This document shows, one piece after another, positions 12,565 to 54,976 of a stretch of 64,000 bases of DNA. How positions within the stretch are numbered: position 1 is the stretch's first letter; the number at the start of each line of letters is the position of its first letter. This DNA is from Callorhinchus milii (lineage: Eukaryota). A program made the translations under genes and the position numbers. The notes under the pieces are model-generated. The model searched no databases and was not told the origin of the DNA. It saw only the letters and a list, made by a program, of their open reading frames with translations. The stretch covers positions 186,001 through 250,000 of the forward strand of contig NW_024704759.1 in assembly GCF_018977255.1 (NCBI RefSeq), in the 5' to 3' direction.

Positions 12565-12663
12565 TAACTCGAGACGGAAGGTTCAGGGAGAGGCACCGGA
12601 ACCCGAAGCTGCGCCGAGTGCTGTCCGGCGGACACTCAGTCTGTGACACCGCAACATGGCGGC
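12565..12663 (+). promoter_or_regulatory. NSFL1C CpG-rich promoter/5' UTR
   Basis: ETS-like CGGAAG/CCGGAA sites; YY1-like AACATGGCGGC overlapping the ATG. Confidence 0.55.
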
Positions 12664-24600: not shown

Positions 24601-27600
24601 CTTTATTAAGATCCAGGGCAACACTATCTCTTTTCGTTCACAGTGCTACACCTCAGCTCGTCACTATATCTTCTCCTGCACAGCAAGCAGAGAATGAAGC
24701 TAAGGCTAGTTCTACCATTACTCTAAATGATTCTGAAGCTACCACCAGCATTCAGATACGATTGGCGGATGGAGGGCGTTTGGTTCAAAAGTTCAACCAC
24801 ACACACAGGTTGGATATGAAATTAATTTTAAGGTTGGCCCTTGTTTCAGGAAGTATGTGCTGTGGGTGGGCTGTGTAAGATGAGATGAGATGTGATGTGT
24901 CATGAGATGAGTGGGTCCTGAATGGAAGTCTGGAAATTTTATTAGAAATCATGAGCCTAAAAAGTACGCTGCTCTGATTAAAATGAAAATAAATGATTAT
25001 TTTGACACAATCCAGAGATGAGGCAAGACTGCCTGACTCGAGCAGAGAGCCCAGAGTAAGCTACGTCCGGAGTGAGGTGAGGCCAGAGTGAGAAGGAATT
25101 GGGTGAGAGTGGGAATTAGGTGCAGAAGGGGAAGTATATCTTCTAAACGACAATAATACAGGGATAAATAGAGTGAGAGGAGAGAATGACCTGGCTGGTG
25201 ATGTGTGAGGAATGTGGTATGTGGGAGTTGATGGAGGGCCCTGAGCCCGGGCGAGTTCATCTGCGGCAAATGTCTGCAACTGAGGAAGCTCCAGCTTAGG
25301 ATAGCTGAGCTGGAGTCTCAGGTGGAGACACTGCGCAGCATTAGAGATGGGGAGAGCTTCCTGGACAGTTTCATCCTGAAGTCAGACACTCCCATGAGAC
25401 TCGGGGAACATTCCGTTGCCAGCCACGGACAGGACTGGGTGATGGTCAGACAGGCGCTTAAGGGGAACTGACAGAGAGGGGCAGAGGAACCCCAGGTTTT
25501 AACCTTGTCCAACAGGTATGAAATACTTACAACCTGTGTGGACAAGGAAGTCTGTGAGGAAGATGGGCAAACTCACTCCAACGCCTCTATACAGAAGGCC
25601 ACACTGGGAATAGTCAGAAAGAATATAGTGGTGATTGGGGATGAGACAGTCAGGAAGACTGACACACTTTTCTGCAGCTGTAGCAAGGAGGCAAGAAGAC
25701 TCTGGGGCCAGGGTGTAGGATGTCACTTCTGGGCTGGAGAAAAATTTGAAACAGGCAGGTGTGGATCCAATAGTTATGATTCACACAGGGACCAATGATG
25801 TAGGGAGGATAGGTAGGGATGAGTTGAGGAGCAAGTTCCGGGAATTGGGAGTTAAGCTAAAGAGTAGAACATCGAAGGTGTTAATATCGGGGTTATTACC
25901 TGAGCCAGGGGCAAATTGGTACAGTAAAAAAAAATTAAAGAGCTGAATACCTGGCTAAAAGAATGGTGCGGAGGGCAGGGGTTTCAGTTTATAGGCCACT
26001 GGCACCAGTATTGGGGGAGACAGGAGCTATTCCAAAGGAATGGACTCCACCTAAACAGGGCTGGGACAAATGTCCTGGCAACACGAATACATAGGGAGGT
26101 AGACAGGGCTTTAAACTACTAAGGGGGGATGTAATCCGTTACAATTAAAATTAGGACCGATGAAAGTGGGAGAGCAGATTAACCAGGGAGATGAGCAAAG
26201 GGTGTCAAACGGGGAAAGGAAGCCCAGGGATAGGGTACTGGTGAATAGGACTAATAGCCTGAAGTCAGAATTAACGGTGCTATATCTGAATGCACAAAGC
26301 ATTCGAAACAAGATAAATGAGTTAAATGCACAAATAGAAACAAACGGGTATGATCTGGTAGCCATCACTGAGACACGGTTACAGAGAGATCAAGGGTGGG
26401 AGCTAAATATTCCAGGGTACGTGGTGTATAGGAAAGATAGGCAATGTGGTAAACGAGGAGTGGGGGGTGGCCCTGCTAATAAAGGATGGGATAAAAACAG
26501 TAGAGAGGAAAGATTTTAAATCAGAAAAGCAGGAAGTGGAGTCAGTATGGGTAGAGGTACGTAACAACAAGAGGTAGAAAAGTCTAGTGGGAGTAGTTTA
26601 TAGACCCCCAAATAGCAGTCACAGTATCTCTCAAGGTATAAATCAGGAAATTAGCAGAGCATGTAGTAAAGGAAAAACATTAATTGTGGGTGATTTTAAT
26701 CTGCACATAGATTGGGTTAACCAAATTGGGAAACGTATGATAGAGGAAGAGTTTATAGAATGTATTAGGGATAATTATCTAGATCAGTGTGCCGAGGAGC
26801 CAACCAGGGAACAGGCCATGTTAGACCTTGTTTTGTGCAATGAAGCAGAGCTGATCAGGAAACTGGAAATTAAGGCTCCTCTAGGGCAAAGTGATCATAA
26901 TATGATGGAATTTAGCATTAAGTTAGAGAGAGAAATAGTTAAGTCCGAAGCAAAGGTTTTAAATTTAAGTAGAGCCAATTTTGCTGGTATGAGAGAGGAT
27001 TTAGCCAAAATAAACTGGGAAATTAGACTTAAGGATTTGACAGTAGACCAGCAATGGCAGATGTTTAAGGAGATAGTGCAAAATTCCCAGCGAGCACGTA
27101 TTCCTTTGAGGAATAAGAATGCCACGGGAAAGGTGGCCCAACCGTGGCTAACTAGAGCAGTTAGGGAAAGTATAAAGTTAAAGGAAGAAGCCTATAAAAC
27201 AGCTAAGATGAGTAGTAAACCCGAGGATTGGGAGAACTTTAGGGATCAACAAAGGAGAACCAAAAAAGTGATTAAGAGGGAGAAAATGGAATATGAGGGC
27301 AAACTAGCGAAGAACATAAAGACAGACTAAGAGTTTTTATAAATATATAAAGCGGAAGAGGCTGTCAAGGGTAAATGTGGGTCCGTTACAGGGGGAGACG
27401 GGAGGAATTATAGTAGGGGACAAAGACATGGCAGAGTCATTAAACAAGTACTTTGCTACTGTCTTCACCTTAGAAGACACTGAAAACCTACCAAGAATAG
27501 AGGGGAACCAAGAAGACAATGTTAGCGAGCAACTTGGGGAATTAATATTAGTAAAGAAATGGTTTTAGGTAAATTGTCAGGTCTTAAAACTGATAAATCT

Positions 27601-29606
27601 CCTGGACCTGATGGCCTACATCCTAGGGTTTTAAAAGAGGTGGCTACTGAGATAGTGGATGGCTTGTCTTTGATCTTCCAAAATTCTCTGGATTCTGGAA
27701 CGGTTCCCATTGATTGGAAGATTGCAAACGTAACACCACTATTTAAGAAGGGTGGGAGAGAAAAGATGGGGAACTATAGACCAGTTAGTCTGACATCAGT
27801 GGTAGGGAAAATTCTTGAGTCCTTAATTAAGGATGTCGTTATGGGATTCCTGGAAGACCATAACAAGATTAGGCAGAGTCAACATGGCTTTACAAAAGGG
27901 AAGTCATGCTTAACTAATCTTTTAGAGTTTTTTGAAGATGTATCTAGTAGGTTAGATAGGGGGGAACCAGTAGATGTAGTATATTTAGATTTTAAAAAGG
28001 CATTTGACAAAGTGCCACACAAAAGGCTATTGCACAAGGTTAAGGCCCACGGGATTAATGGGAACATATTAGCATGGATTGAAGAGTGGCTAACGGGTAG
28101 AAAACAGAGAGTAGGGATAAACGGGTCATTCTCGAATTGGCAGGATGTGACTAGTGGAGTGCCACAAGGATCAGTGCTTGGGCCTCAGCTATTTACAATT
28201 TACATCAATGATCTCGACGAGGACATTGAATGTAACGTATCTAAATTCGCGGATGACACTAAACTCGGTGGGAGAGTAAGCTCTGAGGATGATGCAAAAA
28301 GATTGCAACGGGATATAGATAGGCGAGGGGAGTGGGCGAGTAGGTGGCAGATGGAATTTAATGTGGGGGAGTGTGAAGTTATTCACCTAGGTAGAAAAAA
28401 TAGAAAAACAGATTATTTTCTTGAGGGGGAGAGATCAGATAGTGTTAGTGTGCAGAGGGATTTGGGTGTCCTTGTACACCAGTCTCAAAAAGTTAGTTTG
28501 CAGGTGCAGCAGCAACTAAGAAGGCGAATGGCATGTTAGCGTTCATTGCTAAAGGTTTAGAATATTAGTAGTAGGGAAGTCTTGCTGCAACTGTATAGGG
28601 CCTTGGTGAGACCGCACCGAGAGGATTGTGTGCAGTTTTGGTCTCCTTATTTAAAAAGACATACTTGCCCTGGAGGGGGTGCAGCGTAGATTCACTCGGT
28701 TAGTGCCTGGGATGTGGGGACTGACCTATGAGGATAGGCTGAATAAACTGGGGCTGTATTCTCAAGAGTACAGAAGAATTAGGGGGGATCTTATTGAAAC
28801 ATATAAGAATCTGAAAGGGCTGATAAAGTAGACACTGAGGGACTGTTTCCCCGGGAGGAGAATCTATAACCAGGGGTCACAGTCTGAAAATTAAGGGTCA
28901 GCCTTTTAGAACAGAGTTGAGGAAACATTTGTTCACTCAGAGGGCAGTGAATTTATGGAATTCACTACCCCAGAAGAGCTGTAGATGCTCAGTCCTTGAA
29001 CATCTTCAAGGCTGAGACTGAGAGAGGGATTAGGGGATATGGGGAGAGGGCAGGTAATTAGAGTTAGGTCAGAAGATCAGCCATGATCTTATCGAATGGC
29101 GGGGCAGGGCTCGAGTGGCCGAATGGCCGACTCCTGCTCCTAATTCTTATGTTCTTATGTTCTTATGCTGATGGTATTGCGTTTTGCCAACTATCGGGGA
29201 ATGCCAGTGTGCATCTTGGAATCTGTGGTTACATGGGTAATGTTCAGTACCTTCATTATAAGCAAGACTGTGTGCATGAATTGGGTCAGATATCTGACCT
29301 ATTAAAATAAGCCATTTGACTGACAGCATTGCGACACCTGCTATACTGTGGAAGATTAACCAGTTACTAAAATAAACTGAATTGTTTTTCTCTAATTCCG
29401 TGTAATTGAATGTAATTTCTAATTGATGTTTCTGGGATTACAGCATTCAGGATATCCGGCAGTTTATCGTGAGTGCCCGCCCAGCCCTGGCTTACACTCC
29501 CTTCATCCTAATGACGACCTTTCCCAGTAAAGAGCTGACAGATGAGAACCAGACCTTGAAAGATGCCAATCTGCTCAATGCCGTGATTGTCCAGCGACTA
29601 AAATGA
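12656..29606 (+). CDS. NSFL1C: NSFL1 cofactor p47 (UBA-SEP-UBX), 369 aa. Exons: 12656-12763, 15079-15176, 15945-16013, 22063-22228, 22660-22752, 23299-23408, 23871-24008, 24644-24808, 29444-29606
   Basis: All introns GT-AG with consistent phases (1110 nt). Motifs [68 protein letters not shown]. Confidence 0.96.
12977..13133 (+). repeat. G-rich tandem array (GGGGCTCGGGCGGGGC)n in NSFL1C intron 1
   Basis: Directly visible; G4-compatible on the sense strand. Confidence 0.85.
13735..14560 (-). mobile_element. Internally deleted L2 fragment
   Basis: Minus-strand [10 protein letters not shown] and [11 protein letters not shown] remnants plus an L2 tail. Confidence 0.7.
14617..14890 (+). mobile_element. 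tRNA-derived SINE, diverged
   Basis: GGAGTCCTGTAGCTCAGTGGTTAGAGCAC head and shared body/tail. Confidence 0.85.
16055..18538 (+). mobile_element. L2 LINE ORF2 relic (endonuclease C-terminal part plus RT)
   Basis: [36 protein letters not shown] motifs and an L2 3' tail. Confidence 0.9.
18619..20905 (+). mobile_element. Full-length hAT (Charlie/Buster, GTF2IRD2-like) DNA transposon; transposase pseudogene about 18903-20620
   Basis: TIRs CAGGGTGGGCAA...TTGCCCACCCCTG; 8-bp TSD CTCTAGTA/TTCTAGTA; [37 protein letters not shown] and VRWLS motifs, with stops and frameshifts. Confidence 0.93.
23005..23110 (+). mobile_element. Fragment of a short non-autonomous element, probably hAT-type
   Basis: AACCTTTTGGCTGCCGCGGGCCGGATTCCCTATTTGAGAAAGGTC is shared with about 49395-49520. 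Confidence 0.55.
24130..24437 (+). mobile_element. tRNA-derived SINE
   Basis: Same head, body and tail as the other copies. Confidence 0.87.
25035..29168 (+). mobile_element. Near full-length CR1 LINE in NSFL1C intron 8 (ORF1 Zn-finger/coiled-coil plus SGNH esterase; ORF2 APE plus RT), inactivated
   Basis: ORF1 from about 25186: [36 protein letters not shown]2: [37 protein letters not shown]. Tail (TTCTTATG)n. Confidence 0.93.
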
Positions 29607-34972: not shown

Positions 34973-35113
34973 TCAGGACATGGCCGCGGTGCCCGGGGCC
35001 GTGACGCTGGTGAGTGGCGGCTCTCGATCACAATCCTGCGCTGTGACGCCGTCGAGACACCGACTCTGCCTCAGAGAGAGCAGCGGCCGATTACACACAG
35101 CGGAGCCTCTGGG

Positions 35114-38100
35114 ATGGGGTTTGCGGGGCGGGACCTGTTGCGGGAAAAGGAGGAGGAAGAGGAGGACAGCGGGGACTCGGTGTTGGTCCGGCAGGTGACT
35201 CTGGGGGGCTGCGGGGGGCCACTCTGGGGGCTGCGGGGGGCCACTCTGGGGGGCTGCGGGGGGCCACTCTGGGGGCTGCGGGGGGCCACTCTGGGGGCTG
35301 CGGGGGCCACTCTGGGGGCTGCGGGGGGCCACTCTGGGGGGCTGCGGGGGCCACTCTGGGGGGCTGCGGGGGGCCACTCTGGGGGGCTGCGGGGGGCCAC
35401 TCTGGGGGCTGCGGGGGGCCACTCTGGGGGGCTGGGGGGGCCACTCTGGGGGGCGGGGCCACTCTGGGGGCTGCGGGGGGCCACTCTGGGGGGCTGCGGG
35501 GGCCACTCTGGGGGGCTGCGGGGGGCCACTCTGGGGGCTGCGGGGGGCCACTCTGGGGGCTGCGGGGGCCACTCTGGGGGCTGCGGGGGCCACTCTGGGG
35601 GGCTGGGGGGGCACTCTGGGGGGCTGGGGGGGCACTCTGGGGGCTGGGGGGGGCACTCTGGGGGCTGGGGGGGCACTCTGGGGGGCTGGGGGGGCACTCT
35701 GGGGGGCTGGGGGGGGGCACTCTGGGGGGCTGGGGGGGCACTCTGGGGGGCTGGGGGGGGGCACTCTGGGGGGCTGGGGGGGGGCACTCTGGGGGCTGGG
35801 GGGGGGCACTCTGGGGGGCTGGGGGGGGGGCACTCTGGGGGGCTGGGGGGGGGGGCACTCTGGGGGGCTGCTTGTGCACTGTCCTTCAGGACTGCCGAAG
35901 AGGGCATTCTGGTTGTTTTCACTTATTGATAAGGTCCAAATGTAAGTCAAGATTGAGTCTCTCCCTCCCTCCCTCCCCAGATTACACCCCAACACTGCCC
36001 TCCCCGCCGCAATACCACCCGGATTCCCTGTATCGGCACCGCTTGGATCCTCAGCCTCTCCATCCTTTTACTTTTTCCACAGAAGCAGAAGGCTGAATCA
36101 TTATCTGTCTGCAGGAAGCTGTGCTTTGCCATGGGTGGGGCCCCCTATCAGATGACAGGAAACGCCATTGGCTTCTTCTTACAGATCTTCCTCCTGGATG
36201 TGGTTCAGGTATGAACTTCACACTAAACATCAGATGGGAGTCCAGAGTCTGACAATCACTTTGAATGAGAAGGTGTTGGCTTGACTCAGTTGCAATGTTT
36301 CCACTTTCCAAGTCAGATGGTTGTGCGGTTAAACTCCTCGTCAGGACTTTGAACTCACAGTCCAGTCTTACACTGCAATGCAGTGTTGGGCTACTGTTTT
36401 GTGTTAGGGTGTTATCCTTTGCAGGACATGTTCAGGCCCAGTCTGTCTGTTCAAATGGATGTCAAAGATTCCATGTCACTATTTGAAAATAGAAGGAACT
36501 TTCTCCTGATGCTCTCGACAACAATCCTCCAGGTAAGATTAGTCATTCACTTCATGACCACTGCAGGATATTGGATATTGTTGTGGGGGCTGCGGGGGCC
36601 ACTCTGGGGGGCTGCTTGAGCACTGTCCTTCAGGACTGCCGAAGAGGCATTCTGATCATTTTCTCTTATTGATAAGGTCCGAATGTAAGTCAAGATTGCG
36701 TCCCTCCCTCCCTCCCTCCCCAGGTTACACCCCCAACACCTCCCTCCCCGCCGCAATACCACCCAGATTCCCTGTATCCAGCTTGGCTCCTCAGCCTCTT
36801 CATCCCTGACTTTTAACGTAACATAACATGTAAGGGCCATTCGACCCTTCGAGCCTTCCCCGCCATTCAATCATGGCTCACCTTCTAATCTAACTCCAAC
36901 TAATAACCTGGCCCTGCCTTATCCGCATATCCCTTAATTACTTTTTCCACAGAAGCAGAAGGCTCCATTGCAACAGAGTCAAGCCAACACCTTTTCATTC
37001 AAACTCCACTTGAGTATCCACCAACTCCTTATTTCCTCCCAAAGAAGTTCCCATAACTTCTATTCCCTTCTCCCTCATGTATATTTTGCTTCCTCGTAAA
37101 TGTAATCGTACTATCTGATTTAACCACTGCACTGTCAGACAGCAAATTCCATATTCTCACTTCCTACTGCATGAAATAGTTCCTCCTAAATTCTCTTTTA
37201 GATCCCCTAGTTGTTATCTTAGATTCGAGTACCCTAGTTACAGACCCCCCCATACCAACAATTAGGAAAAGAGTCTCTCTCTCTCTCTCTCCCTCTCGCT
37301 CGCTTCCACTTTCTTCTTCTCTAATAGGAACATAGGAACAGGAGTAGGTCTTTCAGCCCCTCGAACCTGTTCCAGCATTCTATAAGATCACGGCTGATCT
37401 GCACCTCAACTCCAATTACCCACCCTTTACCCGTATCCCTTGATACCCTTACCTAACAAATATCTATCCACCTCAGTCTTGAAAATTTTAATGGATCCAA
37501 CATTCACAGCCTCTTGGGACAGAGAGTTCCAGATTTCCACTACCAGGAGGCAGAAATCAGGAGGCAGCGATCAACTCCTAATTAGGAACTGAATGTGGCA
37601 ACAATATTCATGCATTGTAAATTTAAGGAGATTTCACATGACAAGAAAGCAGTATAGATAGTGATTGTATGTACGATTCCAGATTATCTTTCTGTTGCAG
37701 ATGGAGGCTTTCTATGCAAGTCTGATTCTCTTCACGGGCCGTGTGTGGGATGCTTTCACAGATCCCATTGTTGGATTCCTTGTCAGCAAAAGCAGAAGAA
37801 CCAGATTTGGGAAGTTGCTGCCTTGGTGAGTTTGCGTGAGACACCCTGGGGTTGAGTCGGAGGATATCGGGGTAAACTCTATTGGATGCTCTTCATCAAA
37901 AGAGTACATTCATTATTCATCAAATGCATTCATTATATTTAAAGCCAGATAGACCAGAAAGTTTCTGATTTCAAAGCTACAAATGGCCGTAGTGCCCCCT
38001 GGGTTAGGAGGCAGAAAAATAGCCAAGTTTATGCTCCTGCTTATTATCTAAAGACTTCCTTTCTCCCCTTTGGTGGTAGGTGTTATGTGATGTGGTACCT

Positions 38101-41100
38101 ATCCCAGGAAGCTATCCCAAATTTGTCCCTGTAAAGAAGAAGGATTGAGAGATATGATGAGGAAATGGATGGGAGCCTGAAGGGACTGAGGGAGATGATG
38201 AGAAGGGATTGACGGATATAGTTGGGTGGGTAGGAGAACAAACCATGAAAAAGAAATTAGTTTGTTTGACCTGACCTTCTCGTCCTACCCTAAAAAAAAT
38301 TCTGTTAAGATACAACTTTGATCATTGCTCCAATGCAATTCCCTCTCTTGTTCTTCCTACATACTCACTTTGTAATCAATCTTATAGAATCTATTTGTTC
38401 TTTTTGTAATGAAGCGCATGTCTGTTTATCTATTTCCTCTTCTAATATTCACTTAAGTTATCTTCCCATAACTTTATTAGGACTTTCAGTTCTCGTGTCT
38501 TGTTTTCTTTAGATTATTTTAAAATCCATATTCTGCTGCTGTGTTTCTGGTTTCATTATCTGGTATTTTGAAGATGGCTGTAACCATTCAGCTATTTGCT
38601 TGAAGGAGTTGAATAATGGCTTGTAAAATATCATGGGCAGCCTGGAGATTTATTCTTTTAACTTGGCCTAGCTCTTATCCCAATATAAGAGCAGAGGAAA
38701 GATGGAAAGGAATACTGAATAAATTATTATATTTAAGTGTCATAGATTGCACAAATGCACTGAGCCACACAGACCATTGGTGGTTCACTGGTGAGATCCC
38801 CATTTGGTAGTGAAGTTTGTCTATCAGTGGTGGTAAATTGGCCTTAGACTGAAATTCTGCTAAACTGTTGTCTGACTGATATCAGTTTGTTATAATAAAG
38901 CAAATGGCACAAGTTTTGCCCACAAATCCATTTTACAATATATTCTGTGAAGAGCTTTGAGACATCTCAATAACACGATAGGAACCTATATCAAATGCAA
39001 TTCTTTTATTATTACTACTACAATTATGAGCAAAAAGGCACTCTTGAGAATACACCTTTACAGCTTGTGTGAAATTTGTGAGGAAGATTGTAAAGTAAAG
39101 AGTGGATTGCCTTTTTTTATATTCATATTTATGAAAAGCTTCCTTAGAGTGTGTAATTTGCTGTAAATAACTACCTTTTCACTATTTCTAGGATAATCTT
39201 TTCAATGCCATGTGGAGTCGCTGCCTATTTCCTGTTGTGGTTCAGCCCCTCCTATACCATGTCCTCAGCCTATAGCTTCATCTGGTATTTGGTCACGTAC
39301 TGTGCCTTTCATACCTGTATGAGTGTAAGTGCTTTAGTCTTTTTAGATGAAAACTCACAAAAGTTAATTGGGCCTTAAAAAAAATCCATGTTTGCTTCTC
39401 AATTTCATTTACCTTGCTTCGCTACATAATTCCTCCATCCCTTCCCTCCAGAAATGTACCCAGTTGCCTCTTGAACCTAATTGAATGCTCCCACATCACG
39501 TACAGAACAGGTTCCATGGGTACTATTTACACTGTCTAGCCAGCACTCCCAGGTCAGCTACAGTATGGGTAGAGACTGAGTAAAGTTCTCTCTACTCTGA
39601 TCCACCTATTAACATATTTCTCTTGGTGAATGATTCCATTCTCACCTCAGTAGCAGCGATTAGAGGTACTACAGGTTTGTGCTTGGTGCCTTGCCCATGA
39701 GAACAGATTTGTCAGCAAAGTGAAGAAGCTTTCCTAAATAAATGGTCAATTGTTTCATGCCTGTAAATGCCTAGAGGAAGCTCAAAATAGAACTATCTTA
39801 GTTGTGATTTGCCTGGAGACCTCACTTTTCTTGCGGATTCTTCAGGGATGTTGTTCAAACGGTATAAATGATCAAATTAAGTACTTACTCAATTGCTAAT
39901 TACTCAATTTCATCCTGATTGTGGTTGAACTCAGTGACCTCCCGAGATTCAGCTCTACCTTAATCATGTTTGAAATGAATTTTATTCGGAAGTTCATTCA
40001 AATTTTAACTGCTATATAGACATGGGATTTACTGTATAACAAATTGCCATAATCAGATAAATAGTGGGACAGACGAAAAAGGTCAATTGATGCTTCTTGA
40101 ACGTACAGAGTAATTCCTGAGTGTATTACTGTTTCTTAGTCATCCCAGTTACCGAACATTTTAATATGAGACAGAACCGGTCCATTCAATTGAGACAATC
40201 GTTCACCTCAGGTTGACCTGATGCTACAGTTAGATTGTTTCCTGTAACATTCCATGTAAATCTTGCTCTGACACTTGTTGTTTCTCTTTCTCCAGTGTTT
40301 CCATGTCCCATACTCGGCTCTCACTATGTTCCTCGGTGGTGATCAGAAGGACAGAGACTCAGCAACCGCATTCCGTAAGCACCACTTTCCCACCATTAAA
40401 TGTAGATTTTCTCTTTTTCTGGAAATAATTAGCCCATGTAGTGATATTGTACATTTTCCTGCTGTGCTCTTTGTTTTTGCTTGTCTGGGTGGAACCCCAT
40501 TATTATTTGACATCTGACACACAAGGTTGAATCCTCACTAGATGGATAGCAGGTACCAGGAACTGCCTTTGAGATTTCTGGTGAGCAATCCAATTGAGCA
40601 TTAAATGTGTGAGAACATTGCCATCATCCTCCTGCCCACAGATGAAACACATCCCTATCCATTGAGCTACAGTTCTAGTTGGAAATGCAGAAATTGAGCA
40701 CTAGCTGCTTACCTCTCTATACCAATCAATAAGTATGTGTTCCCAGACACCAACTCCAGAAAGCTTTCCAGCAGCTGTCATATTAAGCCTCTGAGTTCAC
40801 ACGATAGTTATCAGATGGGCATCTACAGAATATAATGTGATATTGTAATTATACCTAAAATTTTATTTTGCCATGGTCTCTTCCTTTCTTGGTTACACTG
40901 GTCTGCGTTGGGACATTATTCCTCTTGCACTGGGTACCCTGTGGAGCCTCAGGCAATATTCTATTCTTCACGTATGCTGTCTGACATCCACAGGGAGAGG
41001 ACATCATAGCTAAGCCATATTCTGTCCTTGCCTGACATCCATAGACCAGCATCTTTCAGCAGAGTTCTCTGGATAATGACCAGGAATGGGGAACAGTAGC

Positions 41101-44100
41101 AGAATTTCTTCCCCCCCCCCCATCCCAGGGAAGTCAAGGTCAATTGTAGAGGTAACTGCTGAGAGTAACTCATGATTTGAACCTGCAATCTTCTGATCCA
41201 CATTCGGTAAGGCTAATGAGCACTCCCCCCACCCCCTCCCACCACCATTGAGTGAAGTGTTGGATATTGATGAGTGGAAGTGATAAACAGCATGAGTTAT
41301 AGGATGGGAGGAGAGATGAGATGTGTACAATGTATCTTTTTAAAACTGCTTTTAACCTGTTGTAGACTTGAATGAACCAGTGAAAAGTATAAATGGTAAA
41401 TTCTGGAGAGATGCAGTTAAAAAGTACAGTTAAAGCTGTAGGCAAGTTGGAGTTAAGCTGTGGTCTTAAGATACAGTTGAGCTCTGGTGTAAATGTAGTT
41501 AGGATGAATGTACAATATTTACAACAATATGTAGTTGTGCGTTATTGTGTCTCTGCAGGAATGGGAGTGGAGATTGTGGCGACTCTAGCTGGAGCTGCTA
41601 TTCAGGGGCAGATTGTGGGAGTGTATCATGCACAGACGGCTGAGTCTTGTCGCCTGAGCCAGAATCAGAGCATCAACAGTACCTGGTTACTGGGCAACAG
41701 CCTCGACAGCACAGTCAGTTCCAATTCTCATTGTATTGCAAGTTGTGTTTAAATTATATTTTTTGTGCATTTGTTGTTTGGATGCTAGCATCAACCAACT
41801 TGTGCTTGTATGAAAAACCCAGATCTTCTCTCCTCCATTGCTTGGTTATGGCATTATGCTTGATTTCCTGAACACATTTTAAAACATTTAAAATATATTC
41901 TCATCTACATCAGTTGGTAAAGTGTATGAACAGCCTGAGCAGACCATAAAAGTTTATTGTAACTTTTGGGTGAAATTCCGCCAGCTTTACATTTACTCTA
42001 TTTATGTCATATTTTAATGTCAGAATTTGTCAAATTGTTGAAGTCAGTCTTAACTTTGAAACTGTTTTTCTGTTGTTCTTAAGTGAACTTACAAACCATT
42101 TCAAAATTAAGATAACACTTAAGAATTTGTCAAATTCTGGACACACTAAAAATGTTACAGAGTAAATCAAGAGGTGGAAATTCAACTCAATTGTCTTCTT
42201 CCTGGTAATGATCAACTTCACAGTGACCGTTTTGTCATTAATATCGGATACCCGAAATTCCACTTAGTCTTAGGCTATGAGACCACTTTACCTTAAAATG
42301 TAAGATAGCCTCCATTTGTCTACCGATAATGTGAGACACACCGGGCTGATGTTACTTTGCCTGTCCCTTTCCCCTTTCTTGAATGAGTGTAACATTTGCC
42401 ACCCTCCAATCCTTTGGTGTTAGCCCTATTTCCAAAGAATTTTGAGAATTATAATCTATCTCTATTTGCTCTGTTTGGGGTTGTAGGCCATCTGGCCCTA
42501 GTGACTTATAAAGTCATTGTTCCTTTAACCCTTTTATATCAGTTAATAATTCTTTCACATAGAATCAAATGTCTCAAAGCATTTCACAGGTAATAATTGT
42601 CAAATTACACAAATATGGGTTTGTAAGTATTTATTCTATATTCTCTTATATCTAAGAGTTGCTGTTATTGACATGCCTAAGTTTGACCACTCACTAAATG
42701 GATAACAGCGACCAATTTAGATGTGACTGCTGAGATTAGATAAGGATGCAAACCTGCAATCTTCCGATCCATACTCAGTAATGCCAATGGGCTCTTCCTC
42801 TACACCAATTGAGCTGCAATAGTGAGCAACCTAACTCAGTACAAAATGCTTGAGTGCATTGCCATTATCTTCATGACTGCAGTCTGGATACCCTCACACA
42901 CACACATACTCATTGAATGGTGATTTCAGCAATTACAAGTGTGGAGCTTCTATCATGGCTGATCTCAATACGATCAAAAAGCAGTAAGACCATGTTTCTC
43001 TTGTTTCTACAGAAGAGAGCTTATATCCTGGCAGCCGCAGTGATTGGTGGCCTTTACTTTATTTGTTCAATGATTCTCTTTCTGGGGGTGAAAGAACTGG
43101 CCGGTGAGTATTGAATCATAGAATCAGAGAGATAGCACAAAGAAGAATATTCGGCCCATCGAGCCCCACCAGCTTTCAGAGCAAGGTGTTCATTCAGTCC
43201 CATGTCCTGCCTTATCCCCAACCCCCTTCAAGCCTCTGCCCTTCATTTACCCATCTGCTACTTCCCTCTTGAAACTCACCCTGGACTCTGCCTATACTTG
43301 ACAGGACATTCCATATCCCAACTACAGTAACTCTCTGAATGGGAAAAATCTGTTGTAACTAATAAGGTAGTTACAACAAGAGCAAAAGTAAATCTTGATG
43401 ATTTAAAGCTTGGTCCCTCGTCACTGACTCCTCTAGCAGCAGAAATAGCTTCTCCCTATTTACTCATCAAACCCCCTCATTATTTTAGAGACCAAACTTT
43501 TCCAATTTCTCCTCATAACTAAAGGCCCCACTGCCCTGGTACCCCTTCCAAGGTCTAATTAACTTTCTAGAAATTAGGTGCCCAAAACTTAATACAACAC
43601 TCCAGTTGTGGTCTAACCAATGATGCGCACAAGTTAGCTTTGCGCACAAAGTTAGCATTATTGCTTTGCTTTAGTAATCTAGTAATTTAGTAATCTATGC
43701 CCCTATGTATATTTCGCTTTTTTTCTTAGGTCTTCCCACGTCCACTTCCACTTTCAACGTCCAGGTCCCATTGCTCGTCTGCTCCTTGCAAAATACTGCT
43801 ATTTCGACCAAAATTAATCGCCTTACATTTTGTTTCATTAAACCATCTTCCCATTGCACCCATCTGTTAAAGTCCTCTTACAGTCTCTTGCCAGCCACCT
43901 CACTATTCACTATACCGCCTAGCTTGGTATCATCCACAAACTTTGATACCCCTTGTAATCACTGTCATGAATATACATGGAAAACAAGAGAGGCCCCAGT
44001 AGAGACCACTAATTACTTTCCATCACCTGGAAAAATATCCTTTTAAGCCTAATCTCTTAGTTCGTATTCTTCAATAACCTTTCTATCCAAACTGCCGCGT

Positions 44101-47100
44101 TTGCTCCATGCACCTTGAGTTTCTCCAATAGGAGAAACTTAAGTTGAGTCTGGTTGAGATGCTGTAGTGAAGGGGATGCAGGTTGTCAGTAGCAAAGGCA
44201 TCAGAAATCCTGAAGTTCACATTGTGGAATGGCTAGAGCATGCCAGCTGAAACTGAACAAATTATCAATATAATGCACTGTAAGCTTGCAAGGTTATCCA
44301 TCAGGACGCAAGTGAGAAGAATCAAATCCCTCGCGAGACTGCCCCTTGAAGTCACAATGATGAGCCAGGCAGGCTGATCAACACCACAGTCCACCCAAGC
44401 TGCCTCTCCATCGCCAGGTTAGTCACCCTGCTTACATCTGCCCCCTCCTGAGGATTTGAGCTCTTGTTAGAAGGATTCTGAGTAGAATGAGCAACATGCT
44501 TGCGCATAGTGTGTGAAAGGATTGCCTCCAGCCTACAGTGACCCACCAACCAGCAGCTGAAGGTGAGAGGGCACATCCACAAATTATTCTAGATTCCATA
44601 AGGTTAAACCTGACAATGTCTGATTGCATGAAGCTGGTGATGGTATGCTCTTATTCCAGGCTCCCTCGCATCCAAGAACCAGGTTGCGGTTTCATACCTG
44701 ACTGGCCTGAAGCTGGTGATGAACCACAAACCATATGTAAGCCTGACCTTTGGCTTCCTCTTCATCTCTTTAGCTTTTCAGGTAAGTGATGAATGAAGAT
44801 GATGTCGTGAATGTTCAATGGCAGCTCATGGGCTTTGGTAATTAAGTGACAGACCTAAGAATGCAGTACATGGCATGGAATGTTCCTGAATAAAGTTCAT
44901 AGCTTTTCCAGATCTGAAACCAAGGCATCTGATCCTCCATTCCGTGAGGCTAGTCGATGAGGGTCCAGTAGTTAGCATTGGATGAGAGGGGGCTTTACAG
45001 TCAGGCTCAGTCCTGTCTGCTCAGACGTGCATGTTTCAGCAGGATTGCAAATAACAATCGGGAAATGCTAGCTTAGAATCAATCAATTTTGAAGCTGGCT
45101 TCTTGGCTTGTCTGGTTGGACATGATCCTCAGTGGCTTGTGTGGGGAGGAGTGTTGGAGATTGTATATTGAGTTATTAAAAATGGAACAAAAACTTGGTA
45201 TTATTCTGAGAATCACTGCCTGTCTCTCTCCAGCTCGTCCAGGGTAACTTTGCGCTGTTCTGCACGCACGCAGCTGGTTTGGGACATCACTTCCAACACA
45301 TCGTGCTCATAATCCTGGTATGTATTCAACTCTCTTAGGAGGAGGCAACTTGATCCATCATATTTGCACCATGCTAACCGTACCAATGTACTGTACCAAT
45401 AACAGTAGTAGATTTAAAAAAGGAGTTTAGCAGGAAATTTAGGACTTTAAACTCAGTCTAGGCACTAAAATACTGAGGATGTGCTGTCCTTTGGGTGAGA
45501 TGTTAAACCAAGGTAGACATTAAAGACCGTGTGGCGCTATTCAAAAAGAGAACAGAGTTTCTCTCAGTGTTCAGGCTAACAATCCCCCAGATAAGATTGA
45601 TAATTTATTTTATGAGTTTGTGGGAGACTGCTGTGCGCAAATTAGCTGCTAGTATCGTGTACAAAAGTACAGTAATTACACTTTACAGTATATTCTGTGA
45701 AGTGCTTTGAGACGTCTTCCCAACGTGAAAGGTGTGATATCAAATGTAAGTATTAGTTACACAGAGCATAGTAAGAATATGTAAATCACTACTGAAAGCT
45801 GTGATAAAAAGCATCAACGTATTTTAAAAATTTGATGCATACGTGAGAAGGCGATAGAGGGGAGTAGGAGGCTTGGAGCTCAGACTAGTTATGCCTAATG
45901 GTCTGTTTTCATGTTGTGCTGTTCTGTGTAATTCTATATAAGTTTATTATTGAATAGGTCTCCTACCTTTCTCAGACTTTTTTCCTCCTATGTTTGCCAA
46001 ATTTGGGTACAGTGACACGAGCATCGGGGACTGTTTATAAACTTCTGCATCTTTCACTTGTGGTTTAACTTGTTAATTTACCTTTGTTCAGGTTTCAGCT
46101 GCACTTACAGTTCCATTTTGGCAGTGGGTCCTGATGAAATTCGGAAAGAAAACAGCCTTGTTTGTGGGACTGATAGTAAGTTATGTTTATTTGTTCATCA
46201 AATGCCACCTCGCTATAAAAACATTTGCTGCTATTGGAGGAAATTCTCTTGAAAAATACTTGAACTTTTGTTTCATAATAACTTTTTAGAAGGATGCTCA
46301 ACATCATTAAATGTTAACATTTAACCACTGAACAGCTAATGTGCATTAAACTGTGGCAGCCCTGCAAAAGATGAAAAGCTAGTCACACTTATAATGTTGT
46401 GTGGAATCGGTGTCAGGTTGTCCCTGCATCATTTCCTAAGAGCTTTAGTCTATTTCCTGTTTGTTGCACATTGTGTATTTCCTGTGCGTCTTTTGTGGTT
46501 AGACCATTTACTGTCAGAATATAAAAACATCTTCAATGGAATGTTATCTGTTAACAGAATATTAGGTGCTGACTTTAGTCATTTGATGAGTAATTCTTAA
46601 GTTCAAATCTTGAATTATTAATTATTTTGCTGCTGTGACTGACTAACATTCATTTCCCTCTCTTTCAGTGGTACATTCCGCCTCTGATCACCATCGCGCT
46701 GGTCAACAGAAATCTGTCACTGATCACAGTCATGGCTGTCCCTGCTGGTGCTAGCCTAGCTGTGGCTTTCCTGTTGCCATGGTAAGATTGCACCATTACT
46801 ATGATGACCTGTGATAGACTCAGCAGCTGTTGCTGATCAAGAGATCAAAGGTGAAAATGAAGTATTTAAAAATAATTCATTTCCAACAATGAACACATCA
46901 CATACCAAATCCATCAGTGACAATGGTACTTACAGGCTGCATTGAGACTTTGCTGTGGCTTCATTCATTCATACATTCATTCCTTCCTAAATGCTCATTC
47001 ATGTGTATGCACACATTTAAATACGCTCAAATACGGATGCTTGTGAGCACTGACTCTCATGTATACACATATTCTTGCGCACATTGCAAGAACTTTCTGG

Positions 47101-48976
47101 TGGAGATATGGTGCATTGTGCCTGACGTCAATCCCTGTTCAGTCAGGAGAAAACACATTTTGATCCCAGCAACTGTTGTTGCTCCCTTTGTTAAAGCTTG
47201 TCTGATTCCTGTGTCTCTCTCCAGGTCAATGCTGCCAGATGTAGTGGATGATTTTAGAGCCAAACACCCACACTGCCTGGACCTTGAGGCCTTGTTCTAC
47301 TCATTCTATGTCTTCTTCACCAAATTTGCCGCTGGCGCCTCACTCGGATTCTCAACTTTGTGTCTGCAGTAAGTTCCTCAAAGTCTCATGGCTCACACAG
47401 CCTTATGTTCTGTGCAGGATCATATCTGGTACAAGTACACAACTTCACATCCGGTCACCCACGCAACTGACAGGTTTCCATCTCCCGTAGCCTCACCAAC
47501 CAGTTTGTGTATGATGTATGATGCTGGCACTGACCACATCAGCATCCAAGGCCGCACTCTAAACCTCTCAAAGCCATCAGGAACCTCAGGGTTCTGTTCG
47601 ACCCTGAGCTGTCCTTTCTCCCTCATATCCACGCCACAACTGGCACCGCCTTCCATCACCTCCGGAATGTCGCCAGACTACGTCACTACCTCACCCCTCA
47701 CGCGGCTGAAACTCTGGTCCACTCCTTTATCACCTCAAGGCTGGACTATGGGAACTCTCTCCTCGCCGGCCTTCCCGGCCCTCCCTCCACACTGCAGGTC
47801 ATTCAGAACTCTGCAGCTCGTGTACTGTCCCGCACCATCGGTGGCCGGGCCTTCAGCCTCTCAGCCCCGAGGCTCTGGAACTCTATCCCCCAGTGCCTTC
47901 GCCGCCTCCTCCCTTTCCTCCTTCAAGGCCGGTCTCAAGACCTTTCTCTTTGACCGTGCCTTCAGCTCCCCTCTCGAATCTCTACCCCCTCCTCGCTCCC
48001 TCCTTTCCCTCCCCCTAACCATTTCCCCCCAATGCTCGGGTCCTGACCCAACTGTACAGCGCCTTGGGACGTCCTCCCGACGTGAAAGGCGCTCAATAAA
48101 TGGAATCTTGTTGTTGTGTTATTATTGTGACTTCCCACATTGGAATGTGATATGAAGGGTCAGTTCATATAGTACTTATACCAAAATGGTTCTCTCTCTC
48201 TTCAGTTTCTCGGGTTACAGAGCTGGCACCTGTTCACATTCACCAACCGTGGCCATTACTCTGAGGGTCCTGATAGCTCCCATTCCAATAACGCTACTAC
48301 TTATTGGCTTAGTAATATTTTACTTTTATCCAATCAATGAAACGCGAAGAAAACAACTGAAGGTGGAGCTTGAGGCAGTCATGTAAGTGAATAAGTTTTT
48401 CCTCACTTTGTCCAAGGCTAAAATATCAACATCTGAAAACATGTGGTCAACATGTGGTTGGAGATTTTTCCTGAAGTACAAACTGGGGGAGGGACTGAAG
48501 AACTAAAGACATGGGACCCAGGTGTGTGAAGGGGCAGGACCTATTGTGTAGAATTGAGTATAGTTTGTAACAAAATACTGATCACAAACTATAAGTTTTC
48601 TATAAGTTTGCAGGGCTATGGGGAAAGCGCGGGGAAGTGGGATTGATTTGGATTTGGATATCTCTTTAAAAAGAGCCAGCATAGGCACGATGTGCTAAAT
48701 GGCCTCTTTCTGTGCTATATGATTCTCTGAAACCTAAAAACAACAACTTGCACTTATATAGCACCCCACCACGTAGGGTAGTGTCTCAGAGCGCTTAACA
48801 ACTGGAACCCGAGAGGTTGAGGAAAGCTGCTTGATGAAAATCTTGTGCTTCTGGTGTCTGGGATATCTTGAACACCATGGCTGACCGTGTGGGTTTATAC
48901 AACAGCTCATTTTGTCCCCTTGTTTCTCAGCAGGAGAGACTGGGAATCTGAGCTGGAAGAAATCCACACACTTTGA
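35114..48976 (+). CDS. MFSD2-family (MFSD2A-like) lipid/Na+ symporter, about 519 aa. Exons: 35114-35194 (alternative 34980-35009), 36083-36208, 37701-37825, 39192-39324, 40296-40374, 41559-41713, 43013-43103, 44660-44781, 45234-45317, 46092-46175, 46669-46781, 47225-47368, 48206-48382, 48931-48976
   Basis: All introns GT-AG with consistent phases (1560 nt). Motifs KLCFAMGGAPYQ, GRVWDAFTDP, CFHVPYSALTMF, RDSATAFR, IQGQIVG, LLPWSMLPDV, FYVFFTKFA, YPINE. Exon structure follows MFSD2A. First and last exons are less certain. Confidence 0.92.
35197..35870 (+). repeat. G-rich minisatellite (GGGGCCACTCTGGGGGGCTGC)n at the start of the MFSD2-like intron 1
   Basis: Begins immediately after the donor CAG|GTGACT. 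Confidence 0.93.
36584..36964 (+). repeat. Diverged direct duplicate of about 35850-36094 carrying a CR1 3'-end insert (about 36815-36935)
   Basis: Colinear match from CACTCTGGGGGGCTGCTTG to CTTTTTCCACAGAAGCAGAAGGCT. Confidence 0.88.
37325..37545 (-). mobile_element. CR1 3' end
   Basis: ATAGGAACATAGGAACAGGAGTAGG... is the reverse complement of a CR1 tail. Confidence 0.75.
43115..44130 (-). mobile_element. Old degraded CR1 fragment
   Basis: GAATCATAGAATC tail and RT-like remnants in reverse orientation. Confidence 0.55.
47535..48117 (+). mobile_element. L2 3' fragment, close relative of about 2730-3541, with an internal deletion
   Basis: Near-identical sequence and the same ORF translation (LSKPSGTSGFCSTLSC...). 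Confidence 0.9.
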
Positions 48977-51020: not shown

Positions 51021-51046
51021 GTTATCACCGCGCGACTCGGGCCCAA

Positions 51047-51457: not shown

Positions 51458-51475
51458 AGACATAACAGCACAGCG

Positions 51476-54400
51476 ATGGGAGTGCAGGTCGAAACCATCG
51501 CTCCGGGGGACGGTAAGAGATTGACTGGACAGCGGTGTGGGGACGGCTTAATGGCGGTTCTGGCGGGGGCTCCGATAGTCTTAGGCCCCGAGGCCTGGGG
51601 TTCGCAGATGGAAGCCGGGATGTTGCGGGCGGGCGAGCGGGCGGCGGGTGGCCGGGCGGGCGGGCGGGCGAGCGGGCGGCGGGTGGCCGGGCGGGCGGGC
51701 GAGCGGGCGGCGGGTGGCCGGGCGGGCGGGCGGGCGAGCGGGCGGCGGGTGGCCGGGCGGGTGGCCGGGCGGGCGGGCGGGCCGGGGCGGGCGGCGGGTG
51801 GCCGGGCGGCCGGGCGGGCGGGCGGGCCGGGGCGGGCGGCGGGTGGCCCGGGGGGGGGGGCGGGCGCGGGGGCGCGGCCTGGACTAAACTCCGCTTGTTT
51901 TCCAGGACGGACTTTTCCTAAGAAGCAGCAGCGCTGTGTGGTTCACTATGTGGGTGAGTGACGCGCGGCTGTTGGCGACACCAGAGGGGGTCCGATCAGC
52001 AACAATAACAGCGGCGACAGCGCGTGTTCCGGTGGGAGGGGGTCCGGGTCTGAGACTCAGAGCCATGTTCGGTGCCGCCGGGAGGGCCCCGACCACATGT
52101 GCTGTTCTTCATCAAAGTGAGAATCAGTGTAGCGCACTCTGTACAATATATTACACTTAATATTCCCGGTGACAACGGGGACGATCCTCAATTACACAAA
52201 GTTTGAAGCAAACCACACAGAATAAAAGTCTATGGAGAGCCTATTAACGCTGTGGGGGGGGGGGGGCGGCACTGCCCGGCGGGAGCAGCCGGTGGTGGAG
52301 CGGCACTGCCCGGCGGGAGCAGCCGGTGGTGGAGCGGCACTGCCCGGCGGGAGCAGCGGATATCTGCAACTCTTGACAGTGAATATCAGCGCTTACAGTC
52401 CAGTTCCTGTTCCCTGTGTTTGACAATCTCGGTGCTGAGTCTGGGAACCAGATTGAGTTCTGTTTCTTTGACAGATGTTACTTGGGGAGTTACTGAATAT
52501 GTTTAATTTGGATACGAATGTTAACTGTTGTGCCCAGAATTATATAATTACACTTTCAGTAATAACTTGTGCCAGATATCTGAAGCATATATTCAGTTGG
52601 ACCCCTTTATAGTGTAGTGGTTGGGTCTATAAAATCACGTTATAGCATTATAAAAATATCGCCAGTCAGCTTTCTCTGAGACGAGCTGTTTTCGAGTGGT
52701 AGAGACCAACTGTTATCCTTGGGAGAGGAGATAAACCAGGTGAGGAGTTTCTCAAGAGCCCCTTTTTTGGTAAATACATCGTGGAATGAAATGAAAAATG
52801 TATAAACTGACATAAAACAAAAAAGCCAACTGCCATTGCCTGCTGAGTCTTCTAGAACTCAGTCATACTGGTGTACCACTTTCCCCCCATATAAGCCGGA
52901 GATGGAGAAGTGTTGATGTGGAGAAGAGGTGTAAATGTGATAAAAAGAAATAAAACATTTTTAATGGATAAAGTAAAACATGAAATTCCTGAAAAGTATG
53001 ACTGTATTTTGTGGGTGAATGGAGCAGCTAGTCTCCCACAACAATTTCCCACAAACAGCCATGAAGTGAGTACCTGTTTTTGTTTGGGACAGTGCTCTGC
53101 ATCAATTGCCTGGTGTACTCACAAAGACAAAGTCATTACACTTTTTGATCATTCCTGTTAAGCGTTTTAAGATGTTTTGACGAAATGGTAATGCACAGCA
53201 GTGAATTCTGTGAAGCACTTTGAGACATCTCGAAGACATGACAAAGTACTATATCAAATCCAAGAATTATTATTGCATCAAATGTGAAGATTATTATTTA
53301 TGGTCATCCAACATTGGGAATCTTTTATTTTTCTCACTCCTGAACATACAATTTGTCCTGCGGTACAGTTTCATTCGAGTGAGTAGCACCTTGCTCAAAT
53401 GGCTTTCACAGTGAGTGTGAATAGGCTGTTTTACTATAGCAGTTTATTGCCAATCCTAGCATAACAGCACTTTCCAACGTAGTGATATTCTCTCTCTCTC
53501 CATATCCACAAGTGTAAACACCAATTGTAGCATTCCCAGCACACTGATGGTGGTCACGCACCCAAATGAAACATCTGGAAATGGAGGGAACCATGTAATC
53601 ACGGAAGATACTGATAACATTCAAGTTTACTCCCCTAGCATTACTGGTATATATCTTGTGTGAAAGCAACTATATAAATGTAAAGTATTGTTCTACACAC
53701 TATTAAAAGAACAAGATTGGTGCTGCTGGGTTTCAGGATATCTGTATTTAGTTCCCAAAAGAGGGGTAAGGGGAGCTGCCTTAAAACAGAGTGAATGACC
53801 GAGATTGTGACAGCGATAATGTGCGAAAAGTTCCAGCGAGGAATAGTTCTGCTTCAATCCAAAGTGGCCACCAAAATAGAAGCAATAGAAAGAAGCATTA
53901 TAAGTTTTAATGTTCGGGTGTTTCTATGGGGTTGACAAATGTCAGTTGACATGCAACATTTCCATTTACTGACATCTTGCGCTTTACCAACAGGAACACT
54001 GCTAGATGGATCTCAGTTTGATTCCTCTCGTGACAGAGGCAAGCCATTTGCATTTGTAATGGGTCGACGAGAAGTCATCAGAGGCTGGGAAGAAGGAGTG
54101 TCTCAGGTAAAATCGCAGCTTCTCTAGTCTTCTCCTTTTTCAGGATGCTGACCATTGAATGGCCTTGGTGCTCGAGTGCTCATAATAATCCTTGCATCTG
54201 ATATAGCGCCTTATCATATCTTCGAGATGTCTCAAAGCGTTCCATAATTATTCTTCCTTGAAGAGTGAGAAGTCGGAACTGAGGTTAGATATTGTTCAGT
54301 TCATGTGTTTTCTTAGTAACCACGTGACCAGCTGGTGACTTGGCTACAACATGATGTTCTTGGCAGCGGAATGTTAGAATCAAGTCATTCCTCTTGGTTG

Positions 54401-54976
54401 TCCTGTTCCTTAGTCAGGTGGGGCACAGATCTCCAGGGCATTGCTCATGATAGATCAGCCAGCCTGACTCATCAGTAAGACTTGTGGAGGTGGGGAGGGA
54501 GACAAGTCACTGGGGCAATTAGGTACGCAGGGAGCGTCCCTCTAGAGTGTTTGCATTTCCAGACATGAAAATTTCCAAGTGAGGGTAGCATATATAAGTA
54601 GAACTATCTGGTTTGAATACTCTGACCCATGGTAATGGGTTTCTGCATGTGTGACTAAAAAACAATTTGTAGAGTATGTCCAACAGGTTCTTCATTTCCT
54701 TTACTGCAGTGCTCCTTTACTTAAGTGCTCTGCGATGCTGCCGTGCGTGTGGGCGCTATACAAATGCAAGGTGTTTTACAATGTGTAGCTCATCAGTTTC
54801 AAGATGAAAATTGATCTTCACATAATTCTTGTGTATTTTTGTTTTAGATGAGCGTTGGCCAGAGAGCTAAGCTGACCTGCACACCAGAATATGCTTATGG
54901 ATCCAAAGGTTACCCTGGTGTCATTCCACCTAATGCAACTTTGATATTTGATATTGAGCTCCTCCGGCTGGAGTAA
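51476..54976 (+). CDS. FKBP1A: FKBP12 peptidyl-prolyl isomerase, 108 aa. Exons: 51476-51512, 51906-51953, 53994-54106, 54848-54976
   Basis: [18 protein letters not shown]...FDSSRDR...VIRGWEEGV...[14 protein letters not shown]; 327 nt; W59 as in FKBP12; synteny with NSFL1C and SNPH. Confidence 0.95.
51625..51878 (+). repeat. G-rich (GGGC)n/GGGTGGCC array filling most of FKBP1A intron 1
   Basis: Directly visible. Confidence 0.88.
52266..52358 (+). repeat. 34-bp tandem repeat, about 2.7 copies
   Basis: Unit CGGCACTGCCCGGCGGGAGCAGCCGGTGGTGGAG. Confidence 0.85.

Follow-up and report, generated by a model that had tools for sequence, protein, structure and literature searches.

Gene structure of MFSD2C in Callorhinchus milii

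We analyzed a 64,000-nucleotide stretch of the Callorhinchus milii genome (contig NW_024704759.1, positions 186,001 to 250,000; hereafter the window) that carries a gene of the MFSD2 transporter family. Within this family, MFSD2A supplies the brain with docosahexaenoic acid (DHA) and MFSD2B supplies the blood with sphingosine-1-phosphate (S1P). The window gene, here denoted MFSD2C, is likely an ohnolog of these two, a conserved and functionally uncharacterized third member alongside a medically important transporter pair. Along the window, the genes are FAM110 (- strand), a SEP+UBX gene of the NSFL1C type (+), MFSD2C (+), an FKBP12-type gene (+), and a syntaphilin-family gene (-). The SEP+UBX gene ends about 5.5 kb upstream of MFSD2C, and the FKBP12-type gene, with a product of 108 amino acids (aa), starts about 2.5 kb downstream.

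An earlier note, made from the sequence alone, had described an intact 14-exon MFSD2 gene between NSFL1C and FKBP1A, and its description agrees with what we found: 14 coding exons extend from an ATG at 35114 to a TGA at 48976 on the + strand, all 13 introns are GT..AG, the joined frame is open over 519 aa, and the flanking genes are of the expected types. The gene and its parts are as follows (TM, transmembrane helix; "frame" denotes exon joining in the open frame, and "contigs" denotes public assembled contigs).

35114..48976, + strand: MFSD2C, third MFSD2 paralogue, 518/519 aa, MFS_2 transporter (exon joining, contigs, Pfam, tree, model)
34980..35113, + strand: upstream out-of-frame ATG at 34980, possible upstream open reading frame (sequence; a contig ends near 34937)
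35114..35194, + strand: exon 1, coding part, aa 1-27 (exon 1-2 joint in one contig run)
36083..36208, + strand: exon 2, aa 28-69; TM1, with Y49 and Q50 (frame, contigs)
37701..37825, + strand: exon 3, aa 70-111; TM2, with R83, D86, T89 and D90, cation site (frame, residues, contigs)
39192..39324, + strand: exon 4, aa 111-155; minor contigs of two runs lack this exon (frame, contigs)
40296..40374, + strand: exon 5, aa 156-182; H158 and S162 (frame, contigs)
41559..41713, + strand: exon 6, aa 182-233; G184 and E186, and loop sequons N217 and N221 (N-glycosylation) (frame, residues, contigs)
43013..43103, + strand: exon 7 (frame, contigs)
44660..44781, + strand: exon 8, with Q304 at its end (frame, contigs)
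45234..45317, + strand: exon 9, with Q307 at the position of the sodium-site Glu of MFSD2A (frame, residues, contigs)
46092..46175, + strand: exon 10 (frame, contigs)
46669..46781, + strand: exon 11 (frame, contigs)
47225..47368, + strand: exon 12; W398 gate, E419 and K431 (frame, contigs, residues)
48206..48382, + strand: exon 13 (frame, contigs)
48931..48976, + strand: exon 14, coding part; contigs run on to about 49200 (frame, contigs)

The 519-aa product is identical to RefSeq XP_042197907.1 (Callorhinchus milii). Exon 14 has tandem acceptors, of which 48931 yields the 519-aa form and 48934 yields a 518-aa form identical to XP_042197908.1; public contigs used 48934, in three of the four runs examined for this last joint, and not 48931. 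Twelve of the 13 junctions were present as GT..AG joints in contigs from seven runs and three studies (seven runs used of ten listed; the RNA type was guessed, as it is not on record, and the contigs carry no expression levels). The exon 10-11 junction was represented by the loose end of a contig entering exon 11, with no full joint. The contig joints across its introns therefore indicate that the gene is real and spliced, and MFSD2C is an intact, spliced gene.

The upstream ATG at 34980 has a good context and opens a 95-codon frame that overlaps the MFSD2C start out of frame. Because contigs start near 34937, this frame may lie in the 5' untranslated region, where it may limit translation. 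A stretch at the end of intron 1 (about 35850-36100) that takes in the exon 2 acceptor and the opening bases of exon 2 recurs within intron 2 (36590-36965), where it leaves a decoy acceptor near 36950.

Three MFSD2 loci in the C. milii genome

Family and protein searches of the genome recovered three multi-exon MFSD2 loci only: the window gene (on the sequence that we label C18), a gene on C10 (11.54-11.56 Mb), and a gene on C3 (18.70-18.74 Mb; C3:18699249-18741843). In our models of the C10 and C3 genes, which cover exons 2-13, these exons join to open frames of 487 aa. All three genes have the same intron phases, and exon lengths are equal in 10 of 12 cases. MFSD2C is 54% identical to the C10 protein and 53.5% identical to the C3 protein, and the latter two are 62% identical to each other. 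The C10 gene clusters with named MFSD2A proteins and has CAP- and PPT1-type genes 1.3 Mb away. The C3 gene clusters with proteins named MFSD2B, and an FKBP12-type gene lies on the same strand, 85-120 kb downstream of it. A third MFSD2 paralogue, as the earlier note had proposed, is thus accompanied in the same genome by separate and open MFSD2A and MFSD2B genes.

The FKBP12-type genes downstream of the C3 MFSD2B form a tandem pair (C3:18519651-18526726 and 18579885-18614533). An intronless 3' fragment at C3:36393410-36393685, which spans the exon 12-13 junction and shares 82% identity with the C10 MFSD2A, is likely a processed pseudogene. Other MFS_2 matches (L001, L008, L009, L011, and L012) were considered as further MFSD2 copies and rejected, each giving at most one weak match to the MFSD2C protein.

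Phylogenetic placement of MFSD2C

A FastTree reconstruction of 78 rows guided the selection of 40 rows for IQ-TREE (LG+C20+F+G4, 497 columns). These comprised 19 C-clade, six MFSD2A, and seven MFSD2B rows, a hagfish sequence, and seven outgroups (Glandiceps, Mactra, and Sycon are named; four are unnamed). Most of 150 representatives were excluded as fragments or distant relatives, and a poxvirus protein was also excluded; the tree contains no human sequence. MFSD2C and its orthologues formed a clade (100/100) that is sister to MFSD2A plus MFSD2B (A+B, 99/97), each of which was itself recovered (100/99 for both). Vertebrate MFSD2 rows formed one clade relative to invertebrate rows (100/98). Within the C clade, the branching broadly matched the species phylogeny, with cartilaginous fish, ray-finned fish (including two teleost sub-clades), lungfish, and tetrapods. 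All three clades include cartilaginous and bony fish, which sets a lower bound on the age of the duplications. Approximately unbiased (AU) tests rejected a grouping of C with A (p=0.033) and of C with B (p=0.021), with the caveat that the groups were named only after the first tree had been seen.

Further points temper this placement. The MFSD2A and MFSD2B clades are thinly sampled (six and seven rows), in part by fragmentary or mis-spliced models. The hagfish sequence falls outside A+B+C at only 85/70 and on a long branch, and the tree is without labelled lamprey, amphioxus, or tunicate sequences; the dating of the C split to the first round of genome duplication is weakly held. We regard it as virtually certain that MFSD2C is a distinct and ancient paralogue. 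The outcome that would have spoken for a mere MFSD2A or MFSD2B, namely nesting within one of these clades in a genome with no other copy of that gene, is not what was observed: MFSD2C falls in a clade of its own, and both other loci are present.

Teleosts have two C-clade copies, the faster evolving of which has Leu at position 307 and long C-terminal tails. Both copies of an anchovy are reported from contigs of equal length, a hint that they arose in tandem. In a quick tree, the ORF-95 protein (470 aa) of Teiidae poxvirus 1 falls with MFSD2A on a long branch, which suggests a captured host transporter gene; it differs from cellular proteins at several transport-site residues. Searches of the ESM Atlas returned MFSD2-family clusters only, in which the three paralogues are not separated.

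Taxonomic distribution and probable losses

To describe the range of MFSD2C, we combined the best 120 of 1828 matches to the shark protein, the best 120 of 1212 matches to the koala protein, and a full tree-shrew isoform; after three C. milii records were dropped, 172 proteins were compared. All but one of these (171 of 172) fell in the C clade (FastTree support of 100), the exception being Labeo MFSD2A. Among the listed matches, the clade comprises sharks, rays, bichir, sturgeon, gar, bowfin, teleosts, lungfish, salamanders, turtles, crocodilians, lizards, and many birds.

The earlier note had supposed that the gene was lost in the mammalian line, and this does not hold. Full or near-full length orthologues were identified in eight marsupial species (wombat, koala, possum, glider, bilby, Dromiciops, opossum, and Antechinus) and in one placental, the tree shrew Tupaia chinensis (XP_006162563.1, 502 aa). 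The listed tree-shrew isoform is 71% identical to the koala protein, and the tree-shrew protein is sister to the marsupial proteins (100/99); its branch is an ordinary one, and it retains the key residues. No placental species other than Tupaia chinensis appeared among the best 120 of 1212 matches. It scored 733 bits there, against a floor of 606, so that further intact orthologues from placentals would probably have been listed. Scoring covered the best 7997 candidates, and another 1092 matches lie below those listed, so absence elsewhere is unproved. Since marsupials and the tree shrew keep MFSD2C, its losses among placentals were probably repeated. The gene is apparently not in humans. Monotremes, frogs, chicken, songbirds, and coelacanth are absent from the 240 listed rows, which do include ducks, ratites, parrots, and salamanders; further losses, or matches under the floor of the lists, are possible reasons.

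Predicted fold and transport function

The MFSD2C protein matches the Pfam family MFS_2 (E=3e-93, profile positions 1-427). An AlphaFold2 model built from a 58-row alignment has a predicted local distance difference test score (pLDDT) of 90.4 and a predicted template modeling score (pTM) of 0.87. Its five best matches in PDB are all MFSD2A, followed by MelB, and the TM-score over the target is 0.92 for 7mjs and 8d2t. MFSD2C is therein like MFSD2A (SLC59A1), a Na+-dependent symporter of lysophosphatidylcholine (LPC) and DHA.

Residues were mapped to zebrafish Mfsd2a, and the mapping gave 25/25 when checked on Labeo MFSD2A. At positions taken from Table 1 and the text of PMC10167227, MFSD2C is identical to zebrafish Mfsd2a at 16 of 16 headgroup-trap residues, compared with 10 of 16 for camel MFSD2B. 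At the mutagenesis positions given in the same source, the counts are 21 of 25 and 13 of 25. The two TM2 aspartates, D86 and D90, were present in all 172 compared rows, and the TM11 lysine, K431, in 168 (the other four have gaps); the tryptophan gate of MFSD2A is likewise shared. We consider it very probable from these residues that MFSD2C is a lysolipid transporter, and our judgment leans, with less assurance, toward a zwitterionic lysophospholipid rather than S1P as its main cargo.

In the mechanism that we envisage, MFSD2C would be a 12-helix rocker-switch transporter of the major facilitator superfamily. A first headgroup trap would comprise Y49, Q50, R83, D86, T430, and K431, as in MFSD2A, and the next trap H158, S162, R182, E186, and E419, with W398 as the gate. 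The driving cation would be bound at D86/D90. The Na+ site proposed for MFSD2A comprises D87, D91, E309, and K433 in zebrafish numbering (PMC10167227, as cited above). In MFSD2C, this site is incomplete, in that both aspartates and the lysine are kept and the Glu is replaced by Gln.

Several observations count against a simple transfer of function from MFSD2A. The mutagenesis positions are also kept by the C3 MFSD2B (20 of 25) and by the named invertebrates (14-16 of 25); the shared trap residues are consequently mostly ancestral and a weak discriminator. Of the 172 rows, 166 have Gln (Q307) in place of the Na-site Glu (zebrafish E309), and 171 have Gln at position 304. Mapped through camel MFSD2B, Q304 and Q307 match Q298 and Q301 of human MFSD2B, and K431 matches K423. 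According to a preprint on MFSD2B (bioRxiv 10.64898/2026.01.16.700024), these two glutamines contact S1P, and Q298 is required for S1P export.

These observations bear on an alternative in which MFSD2C has the same history and transports lysolipids, possibly S1P, in a proton-coupled or pH-gated manner. It would then be a natural counterpart of the G91D variant of human MFSD2B, which is given the first aspartate. As reported in the same preprint, cation dependence requires two aspartates, and G91D makes MFSD2B depend on protons and not on Na+, with activity at pH 5.5 and none at pH 7.5. MFSD2C likewise has both aspartates, Q304/Q307, and K431 and lacks the Na-site Glu, and the same D/D/Q/K set occurs in hagfish and most outgroup rows. 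However, the G91D result comes from a single preprint and a mammalian MFSD2B background, and MFSD2C keeps Y49, R83, H158, and T89 of MFSD2A, which are N, K, Q, and A in mammalian MFSD2B. We view this alternative as a serious but unlikely one. For the coupling ion taken by itself, Na+ is the single likeliest candidate, at about even chances, and H+ is the next, appreciably less likely.

In hagfish and the outgroups, the residues corresponding to D86, D90, and Q307 were found in 16, 17, and 15 of 17 sequences, respectively, and Glu in none. Because hagfish and most outgroups share this D/D/Q state, the Met/Glu pair of MFSD2A at positions 304/307 looks derived, with Gln ancestral. Besides this pair, MFSD2C differs from MFSD2A in having G184 for Thr, and bony-vertebrate members have Asn at T430 (160 of 172 rows). 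MFSD2B (SLC59A2), the S1P uniporter of red cells and platelets, belongs to the same family and shares the exon structure; unlike bony-vertebrate MFSD2B, which has Gly at this position, MFSD2C keeps the first aspartate, as well as Y49, R83, and H158.

Among MFSD2B proteins, those of cartilaginous fish keep the first cation-site Asp that is Gly in the bony-vertebrate rows, with Asp followed by Glu in the C. milii copy, and the Gly that marks the MFSD2B uniporter accordingly looks like a bony-vertebrate change. Carpet-shark MFSD2B has Lys/Glu at positions 304/307.

Probable origin of MFSD2C by whole-genome duplication

The neighbors of MFSD2C in the window are listed below, with presumptive symbols, including FAM110A.

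4697..5700, - strand: FAM110 gene, FAM110A type by position, member of a quartet on four chromosomes (family searches)
12656..29606, + strand: SEP+UBX gene, NSFL1C/p47 type, upstream neighbor (SEP and UBX family searches)
51476..54976, + strand: FKBP12-type gene, FKBP1A by position, four coding exons, 108 aa, downstream neighbor (family search, exon joining)
56943..58878, - strand: syntaphilin-family gene (SNPH type), 3' exons (family searches)

The earlier note had taken the gene for a whole-genome-duplication paralog. In C. milii, MFSD2C lies in a four-fold paralogous block. All four FAM110 matches in the genome fall on C2, C3, C10, and C18, and the four strong matches among six to syndecan fall on the same four. 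A tree of the FAM110 quartet paired C3+C10 against C2+C18 (100% bootstrap), in agreement with the MFSD2 tree, ((C10,C3),C18), provided that the partner of C was located on C2; FAM110 was the one neighbor family placed in a tree, and the syndecans were compared by eye. FKBP12-type genes lie downstream of MFSD2 on both C18 and C3, C18 and C2 both carry SEP-UBX and syntaphilin-family genes, and C2 and C3 both carry Myc-family genes. No MYCL-type gene was found on C10; Myc-family matches were also found on the small unplaced contigs C1384, C1387, C522, and C1130. Given that the FAM110 and syndecan quartets share these four chromosomes and that FAM110 pairs in the same manner as MFSD2, an ohnolog origin is likely, and we hold a whole-genome-duplication origin of MFSD2C with considerable confidence. 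The ancestor of A and B would have split from that of C and a fourth copy, D, in the first round of genome duplication. The second round would have yielded A (C10) and B (C3) on one side and C (C18) and D (C2) on the other, with D since lost and C later lost in most placental lineages.

Other results fit this scenario less well. No MFSD2 remnant was detected within 150 kb searched beside the SEP-UBX gene on C2 (best hidden Markov model match, E=0.035; tblastn, E=0.17), so that the fourth copy is a postulate. The gene next to this SEP-UBX gene resembles CYP7A1 in a motif. UBXN2A was not found near the C3 MFSD2B, either in SEP/UBX family searches or when C3:18.57-18.84 Mb was searched by tblastn with NSFL1C and turtle UBXN2A; loss, an assembly gap, or divergence could each account for this. 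The UBXN2A-MFSD2B adjacency that the earlier note cited was thus not recovered in C. milii and has its one trace in a gene model: a turtle "MFSD2B" record of the B clade is a fused SEP+MFS_2 model, the only one of 37 scanned proteins with a second domain. This fusion supports a SEP-UBX/MFSD2B adjacency in a tetrapod and would add the upstream neighbor to the FKBP12-type gene as neighbor types common to MFSD2B and MFSD2C. None of the C-clade proteins among these 37 has a second domain.

The missing fourth copy, the weak hagfish placement (85/70), and the failure to find UBXN2A on C3 speak for an alternative in which MFSD2C arose through an early segmental duplication of a SEP-UBX/MFSD2/FKBP12 cassette, or before the vertebrates, and not by whole-genome duplication. 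Yet unlinked families that lie megabases apart, FAM110 and syndecan, recur on the same four chromosomes, and FAM110 has the same pairing as MFSD2. The vertebrate rows also form a single clade against the invertebrates (100/98). We consider these alternatives improbable. That the gene is simply the C. milii MFSD2A, or a lineage-specific copy or relic of MFSD2A or MFSD2B, is suggested by its RefSeq name ("sodium-dependent lysophosphatidylcholine symporter 1") and by MFSD2A being the best solved relative, but is refuted by the separate open A and B genes, the C clade across jawed vertebrates, and the AU tests; splicing in contigs also counts against it, and we give it scarcely any credence.

Collectively, we find it probable, if less so than the duplication origin taken alone, that MFSD2C is a third ohnolog from the first-round split and a predicted cation-coupled importer (flippase) of zwitterionic lysophospholipids of the LPC and lysophosphatidylethanolamine (LPE) type.

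Other features of the window

In humans, NSFL1C and FKBP1A are adjacent with no MFSD2 gene known between them, and SDCBP2 sits between the FKBP and syntaphilin genes. In the window, the gap between the latter two genes (54976-56943) is only about 2 kb and leaves no room for SDCBP2. A 683-base inverted duplicate (31664-32346 and 62239-62921; 99.85% identical) flanks the MFSD2-FKBP-syntaphilin block and can be read as a recent mobile element or duplication. The FAM110, MFSD2, and FKBP genes have long GC-skewed tandem repeats at their 5' ends (6400-8200, 32400-34970, 35200-35870, 51040-51460, and 51620-51860). The introns of the NSFL1C-type gene contain a decayed DNA-transposon-like element, with a weak Spin-doc zinc-finger match, and a long element of the long interspersed nuclear element (LINE) type (18880-20660 and 25000-29160).

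Naming and significance

MFSD2C is already annotated by pipelines, under names that confuse it with MFSD2A or MFSD2B. UniRef lists "MFSD2a-like 2" for C. milii, "MFSD2a-like 1" for gar, and "Si:ch211-224l10.4" for carp and Hucho; the amniote records are called NLS1-like, MFSD2A (wombat and owl), or MFSD2B (kakapo). The link to the fish mfsd2a-like 2 suggested in the earlier note is supported in that the UniRef name and the clade are the same, and the "2a-like" label is misleading, because the C clade is sister to A+B and not to A. The fish names imply an offshoot of fish MFSD2A, whereas the clade extends to amniotes and therian mammals. A passage of PMC9333335 gives SLC59 numbers to MFSD2A and MFSD2B only, and the papers cited here treat the two as a pair, to which MFSD2C adds a conserved third member. 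Full-text searches of an open literature library gave no description of a third MFSD2 paralogue; subscription journals and gene-tree databases, which lay outside this search, may hold the clade.

An ohnolog absent from humans is a common general pattern, and MFSD2C was already predicted in databases. The same evolutionary pattern is described for crh2 (PMC9353778), an ohnolog that humans have lost and non-mammalian vertebrates retain; MFSD2C differs in being a solute carrier and not a hormone, and in being kept in at least one placental. Unlike MFSD2A, MFSD2C was not found in most placentals, and its retention in the tree shrew turns a gene "lost in mammals" into one with likely repeated and recent losses, datable from pseudogene remnants. 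Where it is mislabelled, MFSD2C can mislead expression and knock-out studies of zebrafish, farmed fish, birds, and marsupials.

A bolder scenario, which we think rather doubtful, is that MFSD2C is proton-coupled with the ancestral cavity kept (two Asp, and Gln for Glu), and that it survived to the ancestor of primates and tree shrews before several placental losses. If true, fish, birds, and marsupials would have a route of lysolipid or omega-3 uptake that is missing in humans and mice. With two aspartates and no MFSD2A glutamate, a state common to hagfish and invertebrates, MFSD2C offers a natural test of the origin of sodium coupling in this family.

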